A stretch of DNA of 4,169 nt. Origin: a virus. Its lineage: Duplodnaviria > Heunggongvirae > Uroviricota > Caudoviricetes. Shown piece after piece: positions 1 through 4,169 of this stretch. The notes beneath the pieces were generated by a model that worked only from the letters and a program-made list of their open reading frames with translations, was not told where the DNA came from and did no database searches. The DNA is taken from IMG/VR virus record IMGVR_UViG_2531839368_000014; one strand, written 5' to 3'. The position numbers were made by a program, and so were the translations under genes. How positions within the stretch are numbered: position 1 is the first letter of the stretch; every line of letters begins with the position of its first letter.

Positions 1-33
1 GCTTCCATCGGAAACGATGATCTGGCAGCCTGA
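1..33 (+). CDS. transposase orfB, C-terminal fragment (5' partial, continues left of the window)
   Basis: Open frame from the window edge to TGA at 31..33, translating ASIGNDDLAA; it lies just inside the IS right inverted repeat. Too short to judge independently of the IS context. Confidence 0.5.
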   Translation, partial: ASIGNDDLAA

Positions 34-75
34 GTTCACAGATAAAACACTCTCCAGGAAACCCGGGGCGGTTCA
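1..75 (+). mobile_element. 3' end of an IS3-family insertion sequence (IS629/IS1203-like by recollection); right inverted repeat about 41..75 ending in ...GGTTCA
   Basis: Seen in sequence: the reverse complement of 41..75 (TGAACCGCCCCGGGTTTCCTGGAGAG...) matches 4096..4121 (TGAACCGCCCCGGAAATCCTGGAGAC...) at 22 of the first 26 positions, with TG...CA termini typical of IS3-family inverted repeats. Frame 1 of 1..33 reads ASIGNDDLAA-stop, consistent with a transposase C-terminus. The IS629-like assignment is from memory and not verified. Confidence 0.75.
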
Positions 76-439
76 CTTTCGCATGGTGCTTAAACCGTGG
101 CGCGAGAGACGCAGTCTTTCCCAGAATGCACTCAGCCACATGTGGTACAGCGAAATCAGTGAATACCTCATCAGCAGGGGGAAATCGTTCGCTACTTCAG
201 CATGGGTAAAAGATGCTCTCAAACACACATACCTCGGTTATGAAACCAAGGACCTGGTTGATGTCGTAACCGGCGAAATCACTACTATCCAGTCGTTACG
301 CCATACCTCCGATCTTGGTACCGGAGAGATGTATGTCTTCCTGTGTAAGGTTGAAGCCTGGGCGATGAATATTGGCTGCCACCTGACTATTCCACAGAGC
401 TGCGAGTTCCAGCTGCTGCGTGACAAGCAGGAGGCGTAA
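17..439 (+). CDS. NinB/YbcN-family phage protein, apparently 5'-disrupted; the first ~20 codons (17..75) are IS-derived and the first prophage-derived in-frame ATG is at 83
   Basis: The ORF runs 17..439 with stop TAA 437..439 overlapping the ninE ATG (TAATG). It sits immediately upstream of ninE, as ybcN/ninB does in DLP12-like and lambda-like nin regions. A motif RERRSLSQN resembles my recollection of lambda NinB (RNRSLDQN). The IS boundary at 75 falls inside the ORF. Family call is from synteny plus a remembered motif. Confidence 0.5.
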   Translation: MIWQPEFTDKTLSRKPGAVHFRMVLKPWRERRSLSQNALSHMWYSEISEYLISRGKSFATSAWVKDALKHTYLGYETKDLVDVVTGEITTIQSLRHTSDLGTGEMYVFLCKVEAWAMNIGCHLTIPQSCEFQLLRDKQEA

Positions 440-609
440 TGGCTACACCGCTTATTCGTGTCATGAACGGACACATCTACAAAGTACCAAATCGTCGTAA
501 GCGTAAACCTGAGCTGAAGCCATCCGAAATACCAACACTGCTCGGATATACCGCCAGCCTGGTTGATAAAAAATGGTTGCGACTGGCAGCAAGGAGGAAT
601 CATGGCTGA
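439..609 (+). CDS. ninE: NinE-family protein (56 aa)
   Basis: ATG 439 preceded by AGGAGG at 429..434; stop TGA 607..609. Translation [56 protein letters not shown]; length and the basic C-terminal WLR..ARR pattern fit NinE as I recall it. Missing from the ORF track only because it is short. Confidence 0.75.
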   Translation: MATPLIRVMNGHIYKVPNRRKRKPELKPSEIPTLLGYTASLVDKKWLRLAARRNHG

Positions 610-892
610 TTTGAGAAAAGCAGCGCGTAGTCGGGAATGCCAAGTAAGAATCCCTGGCGTATGTAATGGCAACCCTGAAACGTCTGTACTGGCACATATC
701 CGGCTGACTGGATTGTGCGGCACCGGTACCAAACCGCCAGACTTGATTGCCACCATTGCATGTTCTGCCTGCCACGACGAAATCGACCGCCGCACACATT
801 TTGTCGATGCTGCATATGCAAAAGAATGCGCGCTGGAAGGTATGGCGAGAACACAGGTTATCTGGCTGAAAGAGGGGGTTATTAAGGCGTGA
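602..892 (+). CDS. ybcO: YbcO-like DUF1364 protein (putative Cys-rich metal-binding nuclease, 96 aa)
   Basis: ATG 602 preceded by AAGGAGG at 591..597; overlaps the ninE stop by 8 nt. Translation from 602 ([23 protein letters not shown]...CSACHDEID...) matches my recollection of E. coli YbcO almost residue for residue. The track ORF starting at 563 is a 5' extension with no ribosome-binding site. Confidence 0.85.
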
Positions 893-1251
893 ATACCTAC
901 AGCATCACATTACCCTGGCCTCCGAGCAATAATCGCTACTACCGGCATAATCGCGGGCGCACGCACATCAGCGCAGAAGGGCAGGCATACCGTGATAACG
1001 TCGCCCGAATCATCAAAGGCTCCATGCTGGATATCGGCCTGGCTATGCCAGTGAAAATCCGTATTGAGTGCCACATGCCGGATCGCCGTCGCCGTGACCT
1101 GGATAATCTGCAAAAAGCCGCTTTTGACGCACTCACCAAAGCAGGTTTCTGGCTGGATGATGCTCAGGTCGTTGATTACCGTGTTGTGAAGATGCCCGTT
1201 ACCAAAGGTGGGAAGCTGGAGCTGACCATCACCGAACTGGGGAATGAATGA
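889..1251 (+). CDS. rusA: RusA Holliday-junction resolvase (120 aa), GTG start
   Basis: Translation [26 protein letters not shown]...[19 protein letters not shown]...ELGNE is near-identical to E. coli RusA as I recall it. Start GTG 889..891 overlaps the ybcO stop (GTGA); G-rich stretch AGAGGGGG upstream at 871..878. Confidence 0.9.
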
Positions 1252-1388
1252 TGTTTGAGTCTTATATGGCAGAACGTCTTCGCCACCGCTGGATGCGCCT
1301 GCGCTTATATCGTTTTCCTGGTTCTGTTTTGACCGATTACCGGATACTGAAGAATTACGCCAAAACACTGAAAGGAGCTGCCGCATGA
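1248..1388 (+). CDS. ylcG: YlcG-like small protein (46 aa)
   Basis: Tandem ATG at 1248 and 1251 overlapping the rusA stop; stop TGA 1386..1388 overlaps the next ATG. Translation [46 protein letters not shown] resembles DLP12 YlcG and occupies the same slot between rusA and the Q-position gene. Start could be 1251. Confidence 0.65.
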
Positions 1389-2074
1389 ATACCCAATATT
1401 TACAGTATGTCCGCGAGCAACTCATTGTGGCTACCGCTGATTTGAGCGGAGCAACGAAAGGACAGCTTGAAGCCTGGCTGGAGCATGCACAATTTGATAC
1501 TGGTACATACAAACGAAAGAAGCCGCGCATTCTGGATGAGGTAACTGGCAGGATGATTACGCTGGATAATCCGCCGATTTCCGGTAAGCAGTCGTACGCA
1601 AAAGGTTCATCCATTGCACTGGTCAGCCAGGTTGAGTTCTCAACCTCGTCATGGCGCCGCGCGGTTCTGTCTCTCGAAGAACATCAGAAAGCGTGGTTGC
1701 TGTGGAGTTACAGCGAAAGTGTTCGCTGGGAACATCAGGTCACCATAACGCAGTGGGCATGGAGCGAGTTTAAGACTCTGTTGGGTACCAGGAAAATTGC
1801 AGGTAAGACACTGGAACGTTTGAAGAAGTTGATCTGGCTGGCGGCACAGGATGTGAAGAACGAGCTGGCAGGGCGTAAGACCTATGAATACCAGGAGCTG
1901 GCATCACTGGTGGGAGTGACATCAAAAAACTGGTCTGAGACATTTACTGAACGCTGGGTTGCAATGAAACACATTTTTCTACAGCTTGATAGCCAAGCTT
2001 TATTGCTTTTAACGAAAACACGTTCAAAACAAAAGACCACATTTTCACAGCAAGATATTGCAAAACTGGATTAA
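1385..2074 (+). CDS. putative late-gene antiterminator in the Q position (229 aa), not lambda-Q type
   Basis: Last gene of the nin-region chain, followed by a promoter/terminator intergenic region and then the lysis cassette, the canonical Q position. AGGAG at 1373..1377 seven nt upstream of ATG 1385. The protein has no cysteine, so it cannot carry a lambda-Q-like zinc ribbon; a helix-turn-helix-like stretch lies near residues 170-190 (YQELASLVGVTSKNWSETF). Assignment is positional. Confidence 0.5.
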   Translation: MNTQYLQYVREQLIVATADLSGATKGQLEAWLEHAQFDTGTYKRKKPRILDEVTGRMITLDNPPISGKQSYAKGSSIALVSQVEFSTSSWRRAVLSLEEHQKAWLLWSYSESVRWEHQVTITQWAWSEFKTLLGTRKIAGKTLERLKKLIWLAAQDVKNELAGRKTYEYQELASLVGVTSKNWSETFTERWVAMKHIFLQLDSQALLLLTKTRSKQKTTFSQQDIAKLD

Positions 2075-2086
2075 AAATCATATATT
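2058..2086 (+). promoter_or_regulatory. candidate sigma70 late promoter (PR'-like): TTGCAA - 17 nt - TATATT
   Basis: -35 TTGCAA at 2058..2063 and -10 TATATT at 2081..2086 with 17-nt spacing, straddling the Q stop codon (2072..2074), where PR' and the qut site lie in lambdoid phages. Hexamer match only; no expression data. Confidence 0.35.
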
Positions 2087-2142
2087 TTATGTAAATCTGA
2101 TATTTTGCCAATGTTGTACGCACTGGCAGTAATCCAAATTCA

Positions 2143-2176
2143 AGCCCGAGGTTTAAAGCCTTGGGCTTTTCTGTTT
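2143..2176 (+). terminator. intrinsic terminator-like hairpin (9-bp stem, 7-nt loop) followed by a T-rich tract
   Basis: AGCCCGAGG (2143..2151) pairs with CCTTGGGCT (2159..2167) with one G-U pair, loop TTTAAAG, then TTTTCTGTTTCT. Lies roughly 50 nt downstream of the candidate promoter. Confidence 0.45.
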
Positions 2177-2255
2177 CTGAACGGTGAGTAGCCTTCCAAC
2201 CTACCCCAGCCAGGGGGTCTTCAGCTGTTGAGTTGATATTGCTTAGCCCTCTGTT

Positions 2256-2278
2256 GCCAGCTACATGCTGGCTTTTTT
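2256..2278 (+). terminator. intrinsic terminator (tR'-like): GCCAGC-TACAT-GCTGGC followed by TTTTTT
   Basis: Perfect 6-bp GC-rich stem (2256..2261 with 2267..2272), 5-nt loop, then six T at 2273..2278. Located between the Q-position gene and the holin, as tR' is in lambda. Confidence 0.6.
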
Positions 2279-2395
2279 ATTCCAGGCTTGTGGGGAGCAT
2301 CAACTCCGTGCTTTGTCGTTAAATTACCCCGTGAGCCTGATTTCTGACATTTAACGTCCCGGCCTTTTGTCGGCGGCGAAACATTGGCTATTCAT

Positions 2396-2701
2396 ATGCA
2401 CGAAAAAGAGAGCCTTGCCGGAGCGTTCTGGCTCGTTTTGCTGATCATCGCAGGTTGGGGCGGTCTGGTCCGCTACCTGATAGATGTGAAGCAGAGTAAA
2501 GCAACGTGGAGTTGGATAAATGCTCTGGCTCAAATAGTGGTATCAGGATTCACCGGTGTTATTGGTGGCCTGATCAGCATCGAAAGTGGATTCAGTATTT
2601 ACATGATTCTCGCGACAGCGGGGATTAGTGGTGCGATGGGTTCGGTTGCACTGACGTACTTCTGGGAACGACTGACAGGGGTGAAAAATGCAAAATCTTA
2701 A
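2396..2701 (+). CDS. putative holin (three predicted transmembrane segments, about 101 aa), not lambda S-like
   Basis: Small hydrophobic protein with three hydrophobic stretches (AFWLVLLIIAGWGGLV; INALAQIVVSGFTGVIGGLISI; IYMILATAGISGAMGSVAL) and a short charged C-terminus, directly upstream of the endolysin and overlapping it by 14 nt. First ATG is at 2396; the track start at 2384 is an in-frame TTG four codons upstream. Sequence is unrelated to lambda S as I recall it. Confidence 0.6.
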   Translation: MHEKESLAGAFWLVLLIIAGWGGLVRYLIDVKQSKATWSWINALAQIVVSGFTGVIGGLISIESGFSIYMILATAGISGAMGSVALTYFWERLTGVKNAKS

Positions 2702-3164
2702 TCCTCAGCGTAAAGCCTTCCTCGATATGTTGGCGTGGTCAGAAGGAACGGATAACGGGCGACAACCGACACGTAACCACGGTTATGATGTTATTGTTGG
2801 CGGCGAACTGTTTACTGATTACTCCGATCACCCTCGCAAACTTGTCACGCTACACCCCAAACTCAAATCAACAGCCGCCGGACGTTATCAGCTTCTTTCA
2901 CGCTGGTGGGATGCTTACCGTAAACAGCTTGGTTTGAAAGACTTCTCCCCCAAAAGCCAGGACGCAGTGGCATTGCAGCAGATTAAAGAGCGTGGTGCTT
3001 TACCTATGATTGATCGCGGTGATATCCGTCAGGCAATCGACCGTTGCAGTAATATCTGGGCTTCACTGCCGGGCGCTGGTTATGGTCAGTTCGAGCATAA
3101 GGCTGACAGCCTGATTGCAAAATTCAAAGAAGCTGGCGGAACGGTCAGAGAGAGTGAGGTATGA
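2688..3164 (+). CDS. R: lambda R-type endolysin (lytic transglycosylase, 158 aa)
   Basis: Translation [20 protein letters not shown]...[20 protein letters not shown]...[27 protein letters not shown]... is near-identical to lambda R as I recall it, including Glu19 in the AWSEG motif. AGGGG at 2676..2680 upstream of ATG 2688; stop TGA overlaps the Rz ATG. Confidence 0.92.
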
Positions 3165-3622
3165 GCAGAATAACCGCGATTATCTCCGCTCTGCTCATCT
3201 GCATCATCGTCTGCCTGTCATGGGCTGTTAATCATTACCGTGATAACGCCATTACCTACAAAGCCCAGCGCGACAAAAATGCCAGAGAACTGAAGCTGGC
3301 GAACGTGGCAATTACTGACATGCAGATGCGTCAGCGTGATGTTGCTGCGCTCGATGCAAAATACACGAAGGAGTTAGCTGATGCGAAAGCTGAAAATGAT
3401 GCTCTGCATGATGATGTTGCCGCTGGTCGTCGTCGGTTGCACATCAAAGCAGTCTGTCAGTCAGTGCGTGAAGCCACCACCGCCTCCGGCGTGGATAATG
3501 CAGCCTCCCCCCGACTGGCAGACACCGCTGAACGGGATTATTTCACCCTCAGAGAGAGGCTGATCACTATGCAAAAACAACTGGAAGGAACCCAGAAGTA
3601 TATTAATGAGCAGTGCAGATAG
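3161..3622 (+). CDS. Rz: Rz spanin, inner-membrane subunit (i-spanin, 153 aa)
   Basis: N-terminal transmembrane segment ([20 protein letters not shown]) followed by a charged coiled-coil-like periplasmic domain; near-identical to lambda Rz from memory. ATGA overlap with R. Confidence 0.9.
3381..3563 (+). CDS. Rz1: Rz1 spanin, outer-membrane lipoprotein subunit (o-spanin, 60 aa), embedded in the +1 frame of Rz
   Basis: Lies wholly inside Rz in a different frame. AAGGAG at 3368..3373 seven nt upstream of ATG 3381. Signal peptide with lipobox (LVVVGC), then the proline-rich run [15 protein letters not shown]; matches lambda Rz1 from memory. Confidence 0.85.
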
Positions 3623-3647
3623 AGCTGCCCATATCGATGGGCAGCTC
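3622..3647. terminator. perfect 11-bp inverted repeat (GAGCTGCCCAT-ATCG-ATGGGCAGCTC) between convergent Rz and bor; candidate bidirectional terminator
   Basis: Perfect palindrome sitting exactly between the Rz stop (3620..3622) and the bor stop (3654..3656 on the minus strand). Flanking T/A tracts are weak, so terminator function is an inference. Confidence 0.4.
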
Positions 3648-3653
3648 ATGCAA

Positions 3654-3947
3654 TTATTGTGAGCAATACACACGCGCTTCCAGCGGAGTATAAATGCCTA
3701 AAGTAATAAAACCGAGCAATCCATTTACGAATGTTTGCTGGGTTTCTGTTTTAACAACATTTTCTGCGCCGCCACAAATTTTAGCTGCATCGACAGTTTT
3801 CTTCTGCCCAATTCCAGAGACGAAGAAATGGTGGGTGATGGTTTCCTTTGGTGTTACTGCTGCCGGTTTGTTTTGAACAGTAAACGTCTGTTGGGCACAT
3901 CCTGTAATAAGCAGGGCCAGCGCAGTAGCGAGTAGCATTTTTTTCAT
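3654..3947 (-). CDS. bor: Bor outer-membrane lipoprotein (lysogenic-conversion, serum-resistance family, 97 aa)
   Basis: Minus-strand ORF translating MKKMLLATALALLITGCAQQTFTVQNKPAA...; lipobox LITGC; near-identical to lambda Bor from memory; convergent with Rz as in lambda. Confidence 0.9.
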   Translation of the reverse strand: MKKMLLATALALLITGCAQQTFTVQNKPAAVTPKETITHHFFVSGIGQKKTVDAAKICGGAENVVKTETQQTFVNGLLGFITLGIYTPLEARVYCSQ

Positions 3948-4095
3948 GGTGTTATTCCCGATGCTTTTTAAAGTTCGCAGAATCGTATGTGTAGAAAATT
4001 AAACAAACCCTAAACAATGAGTTGAAATCTCATATTGTTAATATTTATTAATGTATGTCAGATGCGAAGGATCGTCACTGTATTCCCGGATTAAC

Positions 4096-4169
4096 TGAAC
4101 CGCCCCGGAAATCCTGGAGACTAAACTCCCTGAGAAAGAGGTAAACAGGATGACTAAAAATACTCGTTT
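4096..4169 (+). mobile_element. 5' end of an IS3-family insertion sequence (IS629/IS1203-like by recollection); left inverted repeat about 4096..4121, element continues right of the window
   Basis: TGAACCGCCCCGGAAATCCTGGAGAC at 4096 is the inverted counterpart of the repeat at 41..75. It is followed by AGAGG at 4137..4141 and ATG 4150 opening MTKNTR..., which I recall as the N-terminus of IS629-type orfA. Confidence 0.75.
4150..4169 (+). CDS. transposase orfA, N-terminal fragment (3' partial)
   Basis: ATG 4150 with a ribosome-binding site 8 nt upstream; open to the window edge (MTKNTRF...). Only 6-7 codons are visible. Confidence 0.5.

Follow-up and report, generated by a model that had tools for sequence, protein, structure and literature searches.

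Gene Content of the Scaffold

The window, by which we mean the whole 4,169-nt stretch of DNA that was analysed, is the entire scaffold JH694520.1 of assembly GCA_000267285.2, and the strain name, E. coli EC4436, was taken from the protein accessions on the scaffold that neighbours it. A near-identical scaffold, JH694143.1, is present in the sister assembly GCA_000267265.2, and its first 429 nt are identical to window positions 11-439. EC4436 and EC4437 have been described as two indistinguishable O157:H7 isolates of clade 8.32 and as temporal outliers of the 2006 Taco Bell outbreak (PMC4928038); from this report and the taxonomy listing, we infer that GCA_000267265.2 is EC4437.

The genes in the window make up the nin-to-lysis module of a DLP12-like cryptic prophage (ybcN', ninE, ybcO, rusA, ylcG, Q, holin, lysozyme, rzpD, and bor), which in complete O157:H7 genomes lies between emrE/ybcK and ybcV/nohD. 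The ninE-ybcO-rusA genes (439-1251) form part of the same transcription unit as ybcN, and this unit is now parted from its native upstream region by an insertion sequence (IS) whose right end opens the window (Table 1). Positions 76-4095 matched the genome of strain 28RC1 with zero mismatches, and an Rfam scan of the entire window gave no match. The window closes with the left end of a second IS copy (4096-4169), which is identical to the IS left end in the comparison locus L001 and in scaffold JH694519.1. The trinucleotide AAC at 4093-4095 is the target duplication of this second copy; strain 28RC1 has a full 1310-bp IS with AAC/AAC flanks at the same site, and the copy is common to many O157:H7 genomes.

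Table 1. Features of the window (positions in nt) and IS629-like insertions in or near ybcN in other strains (positions relative to ybcN)
Feature	Position	Strand or orientation	Description
IS629/IS1203 (IS3 family) right end	1-75	+	same orientation as ybcN; as in annotated IS1203 copies
Transposase orfB, 3' end	1-33	+	stop TGA at 31-33, where the frame-1 translation ends
Chimeric 140-aa ORF	17-439	+	20 IS-derived residues (MIWQPEFTDKTLSRKPGAVH) followed by YbcN residues 32-151
Terminal inverted repeat (IRR), ~25 bp	51-75	+	compared with left end 4096-4120
ybcN, 3' part	76-439	+	nt 93-456 of 456; residues 32-151 plus third base of codon 31
CTT target site duplication, right copy	76-78	+	ybcN nt 93-95
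Alternative 118-aa ORF	83-439	+	first prophage-derived ATG, Met34 of YbcN
ninE	439-609	+	intact; Pfam match
ybcO	602-892	+	intact; Pfam match
rusA	889-1251	+	intact; Pfam match
Second IS629/IS1203 copy, left end	4096-4169	+	direct orientation; includes orfA start ATG 4150
CRE287, IS629-like insertion	ybcN nt 44-47	same as ybcN	4-bp duplication
EC4436/EC4437, IS629 insertion	ybcN nt 93-95	same as ybcN	CTT duplication
UTME-7, IS629-like insertion	ybcN nt 101-103	opposite to ybcN	
Z1323PEC0008, IS629-like insertion	ybcN nt 158		left-side deletion, unrelated left flank
Strain 1613, IS1203	-243 to -241 from ybcN		upstream of intact gene
FHI_NMBU_11 and related strains, IS629-like insertion	about -184 from ybcN		

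The Right End of an IS629/IS1203 Element

A preliminary description of this DNA had placed the right end of an IS at position 75, which is where annotated IS1203 copies end. Window positions 1-75 differ from the right end of the annotated IS1203 of strain 1613 by one extra C and are otherwise identical, and they gave thousands of matches in E. coli genomes. The annotated end of the IS1203 transposase coding sequence (L001:3033) corresponds to window position 33. The tip at 75 (...GGTTCA) is the reverse complement of the tip at 4096 (TGAACC...). Counted inward from the tips, 22 of 25 bases match between the two inverted repeats, and the similarity is gone beyond ~27 nt.

Two features of the IS3 family and of IS629/IS1203 were found. 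The tips carry TG...CA inverted repeats, reading TGAACCGCCCCGG at 4096 with the reverse complement ending at 75, and the target duplications fall in the 3-4 bp range published for IS629 (CTT in ybcN; AAC/AAC for the second copy, in 28RC1). A further feature of IS629/IS1203 is a length of ~1.3 kb with orfA and orfB joined by a programmed -1 frameshift; complete elements that share these ends measure 1309-1310 bp and are annotated with a programmed frameshift. For the copy in ybcN, 75 and 74 nt are assembled at its two ends, and the scaffolds break inside the repeat. The presence of both ends together with the target duplication suggests that this copy is a single complete 1310-bp element.

Reciprocal Junction and Target Duplication

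Over window positions 76-439, the sequence agrees at 100% identity with the final 364 nt of an intact ybcN gene of 456 nt, which encodes the 151-aa protein WP_001053040.1 in many O157:H7 genomes. The breakpoint therefore falls after nt 92 of ybcN and splits codon 31 (TG/C, the slash here and below marking the junction). The insertional truncation proposed in the preliminary description is borne out by this alignment, in which the gene is broken between nt 92 and nt 93 of its 456 nt.

The same description had advised looking for the missing 5' part of the gene beyond the IS. To this end, the peptides expected from the 5' fragment were predicted for several lengths of target duplication and looked up as exact sequences in the protein collection. 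The 47-aa peptide predicted for a 3-bp duplication, MNLPQDGIKLHRGNFTAVGQQIQTYLEDGKCFEPPRKSWRLNSLRKR, exists as EIP48246.1 and EIP62062.1, on 2 contigs and named for E. coli EC4436, and the same exact look-up found none of the left-junction peptides for 0, 1, 2, 4, 5, or 6 duplicated bases. The peptide is encoded on scaffolds JH694519.1 (L005; 804 nt) and JH694142.1 (L006), which are numbered directly before the window scaffold and its sister scaffold, respectively. On both, ybcN nt 1-95 run directly into the IS left end (...GGCAAATGCTT/TGAACCGCC...), and on JH694519.1 the left copy of the CTT trinucleotide occupies positions 728-730, immediately before the IS. The left junction there reads ...GACGGCAAATGCTT/TGAACCGCCCCGG..., and the right junction in the window reads ...GGTTCA/CTTTCGCATGG. 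When the IS and one CTT are removed, positions 636-730 of JH694519.1 joined to window positions 79-439 restore the intact 456-nt ybcN base for base. The missing 5' part of ybcN has thus been recovered as nt 1-95, with CTT duplicated.

Since the two junctions are reciprocal, share the CTT, and account for every base of ybcN, the event was a simple transposition with a 3-bp duplication in which nothing was deleted. IS629 is known to duplicate 3-4 bp of its target, and 62% of its copies reside in prophages (PMC3271280). These observations bear on the suspicion that the junction might be an assembly artefact or the product of an IS-adjacent deletion or of recombination between IS copies. In its favour, the window is a short-read scaffold that starts and ends inside a repeated IS. 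In strain 1613, an IS1203 lies only 241 bp upstream of ybcN, close enough in principle for a deletion next to it to extend as far as nt 92; deletions of this type, promoted by IEE, are known to occur beside IS629 (PMC9330008), and in strain Z1323PEC0008 the sequence to the left of an IS-ybcN junction is unrelated. However, the same right and left junctions occur in two assemblies, and neither a deletion nor a chimeric join would leave junctions that share CTT and together cover all of ybcN. The reciprocal junction and the duplication exclude a chimeric assembly, IS-IS recombination, and an IS-adjacent deletion, including one from an upstream IS like that of strain 1613, and we give this group of explanations a negligible probability.

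Length, Family and Fold of Intact YbcN

A search with the intact protein recovered homologues with 60-85% identity in Salmonella, Klebsiella, Citrobacter, Enterobacter, Cronobacter, and Pantoea. Nearly all of these proteins from six genera are exactly 151 aa long, with 100% query coverage. In an alignment of 38 homologues, residues G7, L10, H11, N14, L26, and G29 are invariant, and M1, F15, A17, I18, and G19 are nearly so. The native GTG start codon is preceded by a GGAGG site and overlaps the stop codon of a small upstream ORF as GTGA. These comparisons indicate that the true full length of YbcN is 151 aa.

The first prophage-derived ATG is at position 83, as had been noted, and corresponds to Met34 of YbcN. 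It was also recognized that a natural start at this codon would place the IS upstream of an intact 118-aa gene rather than within one. A 118-aa product is indeed predicted from intact loci by some gene callers, one such protein occurring on a complete genome and one on 79 contigs. Against this, alignments with the homologues from the six genera extend along the whole 151-residue length, the first 31 residues show conservation of their protein sequence and are covered by both the NCBIfam and the PHROG profiles, and the GTG codon has both the GGAGG site (-10.8 kcal/mol) and the overlap with the upstream stop. A natural start at 83 is thus highly improbable, and the IS lies within the gene. The estimate that roughly 30 N-terminal residues are missing also proved accurate, 31 native residues having been replaced.

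The membership of YbcN in the Orf/NinB family was assessed at the levels of profile, sequence, and structure. Scores against the Pfam NinB profile (PF05772) were 22.5 bits for the intact protein, 22.4 for the chimera, and 21.6 for the 118-aa form, all below the gathering threshold of 23.8; some YbcN homologues carry a precomputed PF05772 match. Intact YbcN had no sequence match in the PDB at E <= 1, and the hhalign alignment of YbcN with lambda NinB, in which RSLSQN pairs with RSLDQN, was weak (E 0.06) and counts for little alone. For an intact YbcN with 93% identity, the AlphaFold2 model has a mean pLDDT of 87 and a confident helix at residues 12-27. The top two PDB matches of this model in Foldseek were chains of 1PC6 (lambda NinB/Orf), with probabilities of 0.99 and 0.98 and with modest E-values (0.013-0.04) and TM-scores (0.43-0.52). 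Published Phyre2 modelling and biochemistry favour the same assignment: purified DLP12 YbcN binds ssDNA and SSB, like lambda Orf (PMC4118853). The two proteins belong to the same family of ssDNA- and SSB-binding recombination mediators, and they share the same position in the nin region before ninE, ybcO, and rusA; YbcN is a distant member, and the copy in the window lacks its N-terminal fifth. The gene called "NinB-like" in the preliminary description is better described as ybcN, whose product is a distant relative of Orf/NinB just under the Pfam NinB threshold and not a close NinB.

Part of the dimer interface of Orf is formed by its beta1-alpha1-beta2 segment, the RAGNYA motif (PMC4118853). 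Judged from the models, the region of helix 12-27 would correspond to beta1-alpha1 of this dimer-forming motif. Truncation at residue 31 removes the model-predicted helix and everything before it, and 20 unrelated residues stand in its place.

The Chimeric Open Reading Frame

The 140-aa ORF is represented in public databases as WP_050547108.1, labelled "YbcN family protein," and an exact sequence look-up found it on only 2 contigs. The preliminary description had the frame open from ATG 17 with about 20 IS-encoded codons fused in frame to the gene. This is correct; the IS contributes 19 codons and two bases of the twentieth, and the ORF continues in the ybcN frame. The coordinates in that description are all correct, and only its statement that the ATG lies within the inverted repeat of the IS has to be revised: the repeat is confined to ~25 bp (51-75), and the three bases of ATG 17, at a distance of 57-59 nt from the IS tip and 14 nt upstream of the orfB stop, belong to the 3' end of orfB.

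Translation of the last 75 nt of the IS in the three outward frames showed that frame 2 is fully open and that its ATG 17 is the sole start; the remaining frames are interrupted by stops, at 43 and 18, and have no start afterwards. With one of three outward frames open and provided with a start, about one third of same-orientation insertions into coding sequence would yield a fusion ORF of this kind, and the open chimeric frame is no more than chance. A coding sequence that starts inside the IS has likewise been annotated by PGAP at the IS-ybcN junction of strain CRE287.

We compared the chimera with intact YbcN to see what is retained. With the NCBIfam model NF007281 (PRK09741), the score is 272.4 bits for the intact protein and 217.6 bits for the chimera, both above the cut-off of 164; the match spans model positions 1-151 for the intact protein and only 31-151 for the chimera, the latter short of the full length of the model. 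In PHROG 72 ("NinB/Orf homologous recombination mediator"; 161 positions), the intact protein matches positions 7-158 and the chimera 41-158; for two further PHROG families, the match to the chimera is limited to its first 20-26 residues, which derive from the IS. The chimera keeps the C-terminal two thirds and, within the protein, the residues that are most conserved in the wider Orf family, namely the RSLSQN motif and the equivalents of the His and Trp residues that line the channel. It lacks the invariant G7, L10, H11, N14, L26, and G29.

An alternative reading is that this ORF is translated into a working YbcN with an exchanged N-terminus. The frame is open from ATG 17, the NCBIfam score exceeds the cut-off, RefSeq names the product a YbcN family protein, and the motif and C-terminal two thirds are intact. 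Yet 31 conserved N-terminal residues, including the invariant H11, have been swapped for 20 IS-encoded ones, the region of helix 12-27 (beta1-alpha1 of the RAGNYA motif) is gone, the ribosome-binding site is weak, and a fusion of this sort is expected by chance in about one third of same-orientation insertions. Even full-length YbcN, both untagged and His-tagged, was insoluble on overproduction (PMC4118853). We therefore consider a working chimera very improbable.

Expression Signals at the Junction and the Possible Activation of rusA

The predicted pairing with the anti-Shine-Dalgarno sequence amounts to -10.8 kcal/mol for the native GTG start, -3.5 kcal/mol for ATG 17, and -7.2 kcal/mol for ATG 83, compared with -10 to -12 kcal/mol for the neighbouring genes. 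The value for ATG 83 comes from a G-rich stretch that is poorly placed and ends 9 nt upstream of the ATG. A scan of window positions 1-700 for sigma-70-like promoters found none, nor any hexamer pair that spans or follows the junction, which leaves the idea of a hybrid promoter without support. No terminator-like site was found on the + strand between the orfB stop or the IS right end and the ORF, so read-through transcripts from the IS are predicted to be able to carry the chimeric ORF; since ATG 17 lies just upstream of the orfB stop, some coupled re-initiation is possible.

The loss of the strong ribosome-binding site, the native start, helix 12-27, and the invariant residues makes it most likely that the ybcN 3' fragment is a non-functional pseudogene and the chimeric ORF an annotation by-product. 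We infer from the sequence features that the fragment is neither expressed nor functional. The preliminary description had left the choice open between a pseudogene and an altered product driven by the IS; on these grounds, the former appears much more likely.

A separate question is whether the IS acts as a mobile promoter or a source of read-through that switches on the quiescent ybcN'-ninE-ybcO-rusA(-Q) genes, which would be compatible with the disruption of ybcN as a side effect. Transposase promoters of the IS3 family are weak. The rusA gene of the K-12 prophage DLP12 is quiescent until IS2 or IS10 inserts upstream of it, as in rus-1 and rus-2, and so activates it (PMC1636454, PMC4118853), and expression at this locus needs insertions that supply a promoter (PMC4118853). 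The right ends of IS3-family elements can carry an outward -35 hexamer (PMC9330008). The IS in ybcN is in the orientation of the operon, and no + strand terminator-like site stands at its right end or at the junction, which is in keeping with such a role. Its position upstream of rusA in the same prophage module also resembles that of rus-1 and rus-2. However, rus-1 and rus-2 were selected as ruv suppressors and are proven activators of transcription, whereas the IS629 insertion here arose without selection and has no promoter-like signal, the scan having found no hexamer pair across or after the junction. Among complete E. coli genomes, IS629-like ends within ~0.7 kb of ybcN are in the same orientation as the gene in 7 cases and in the opposite orientation in 7, a crude count of small numbers from lineages that are not independent, which shows no bias and no sign of selection for outward transcription. 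A promoter-like site is present upstream of intact ybcN (L001:3139-3167; also in L005), and the IS now separates it from the operon, so that the net effect of the insertion could be polar. Activation of the operon by the IS is, in our judgement, unlikely. More doubtful still is the extended version of this idea, by which the IS629 right end would drive the silent ybcN'-ninE-ybcO-rusA genes with re-initiation at ATG 17 after orfB, and insertions would recur here beyond what target preference explains. If it were true, this IS629 copy would be a natural O157:H7 counterpart of the rus-1 and rus-2 activations of K-12.

Recurrence and Strain Distribution

None of the 5,426 complete E. coli genomes that were searched contains the exact EC4436 junction; the isolates EC4436 and EC4437 are the only ones in which it was observed. 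Genome matches with an apparent coverage of 100% resolved into two separate pieces, a nearby IS and an intact or otherwise broken ybcN.

Other IS629-like insertions recur at the 5' end of ybcN or upstream of it (Table 1). They involve the same gene and element family as the insertion in EC4436. They differ from it in their nucleotide positions, lineages, and DLP12 variants, and they occur in both orientations; they are independent events. Ooka et al. reportedly described, in 2009, IS629/IS1203 insertion polymorphisms in the prophages of E. coli O157:H7. The insertion in ybcN also resembles the IS629 polymorphisms of Rump et al. (2011; PMC3271280) in the element, the host lineage, the prophage target, the 3-bp duplication, and the strain-specific presence. 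The main text of that paper mentions "ybcN" 0 times, and the site at ybcN nt 93-95 does not appear in it.

Discussion

The best explanation of the locus, and one that we hold with high confidence, is an IS629/IS1203 insertion into codons 31-32 of ybcN that split the gene, most likely left it non-functional, and produced the chimeric ORF as a by-product. IS629/IS1203, an IS3-family element that moves by copy-out/paste-in, transposed into ybcN, which in this DLP12-like cryptic prophage is the recombination-mediator gene of the Orf/NinB family. This took place in an ancestor shared by the O157:H7 isolates EC4436 and EC4437, and the trinucleotide CTT was duplicated. The 5' piece (ybcN nt 1-95) runs into the IS left end and gives the 47-aa ORF, and the 3' piece (nt 93-456) has by chance come into frame with the open, ATG-bearing outward frame of the IS, which gives the 140-aa ORF. 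Missing from the 3' piece are the strong ribosome-binding site, the start that overlaps the upstream stop (GTGA), the part of the Orf fold made up of its first strand and helix (helix 12-27 in the model), and 6/38 invariant residues.

The event is an ordinary strain-specific IS629 insertion in an O157:H7 cryptic prophage, of a kind already known as a well-documented source of small polymorphisms. The site at ybcN nt 93-95 can serve as a marker of the EC4436/EC4437 lineage, given its absence from the complete E. coli genomes. For annotation, the finding is a warning that the RefSeq protein WP_050547108.1 (140 aa) is an IS-gene fusion and that a similar call has been made in CRE287. With ybcN naturally disrupted and an IS upstream of rusA, EC4436 and EC4437 may be of use for work on rusA and the activity of the Orf family in O157:H7.

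Insertion of IS629-like elements around the ybcN 5' end

Independent IS629-like insertions are clustered in a region comprising nt 1-160 of ybcN and the preceding 250 nt, as found in strains CRE287 (L008), Z1323PEC0008 (L009), FHI_NMBU_11 (L010), UTME-7 (L011) and 1613 (L001). The E. coli lineages concerned are unrelated, and both orientations occur (7 vs. 7 records). This pattern suggests that the region is a preferred target, rather than that the insertions were selected.

Two of the resulting IS-ybcN fusion ORFs have been entered in public annotation as an ordinary "YbcN family protein", namely WP_050547108.1 (window 17-439) of EC4436 and WP_371011376.1 (L008:2042-2488) of CRE287, whereas the ybcN fragments of UTME-7 and Z1323PEC0008 carry a pseudogene flag. 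In the EC4436 chimera, residues 1-26 (window 17-94) are matched by two PHROG families, phrog_33794 (profile length 542) and phrog_31974 (length 141), and both matches are restricted to the 20-26 N-terminal residues that derive from the IS. Fusions of the same kind, starting at this IS629 ATG, are probably also present among other annotated phage proteins.

The transcription signals near the insertion and the other features located are listed in the table. The terminator-like hairpin in the IS right end lies on the strand that reads into the IS and could limit the entry of outside transcription into the element. In EC4436, the IS cuts off the promoter-like site upstream of ybcN from the remaining operon.

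Features of the insertion locus, the late region and the region beyond bor
Feature	Coordinates	Strand or orientation	Position
Terminator-like hairpin (CCGGGTTTCCTGG, then T-rich tail)	window 54-66	minus	within IS right inverted repeat
Promoter-like site (TTGATT, 17-nt spacer, CATAAT)	L001:3139-3167 (strain 1613) = L005:456-484 (neighbouring scaffold JH694519.1)		about 150-180 nt upstream of ybcN start, intact locus
GC-rich hairpin, then T run (direct sequence reading)	window, about 2141-2176		Q-to-holin intergenic region (2075-2395)
60-aa ORF	window 3381-3563	frame different from rzpD	inside rzpD (3161-3622)
Second IS629/IS1203 copy	window 4093-4169; L007:6521-7830 (O157:H7 locus)	direct, relative to IS in ybcN	3' of bor

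Lysis and late region

In the ORF embedded in rzpD, a lipoprotein-like signal (...LVVVGC) is combined with a proline-rich stretch; nesting of the o-spanin gene inside that of the i-spanin in this way is usual for Rz1/Rz. In lambdoid phages, late-promoter terminators are located in the Q-to-holin intergenic region. This region of the window carries no inserted stx or tRNA genes, and no Rfam match was obtained anywhere in the window.

Assembly and the segment between the IS copies

The window and its neighbouring scaffold each end in an IS stretch of 74-75 nt, and the corresponding scaffolds of the sister assembly (L004, JH694143.1; L006, JH694142.1) stop 64-65 nt into the IS. These ends reflect the breaking of short-read assemblies at a repeat, and the interior of the ybcN IS copy is therefore unassembled. 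The shortened calls in JH694143.1, which are 47 aa for ybcO (592-733) vs. 96 aa in the window and 82 aa for bor (3692-3938) vs. 97 aa, are probably draft sequencing or assembly errors and not real differences.

The second IS629/IS1203 copy has AAC on either side and is also present after bor in many O157:H7 genomes. In EC4436, the ybcN'-to-bor segment (4,020 bp) is therefore bracketed by two direct IS copies, one in ybcN and one after bor. This arrangement resembles a composite transposon, and recombination could readily delete the segment.
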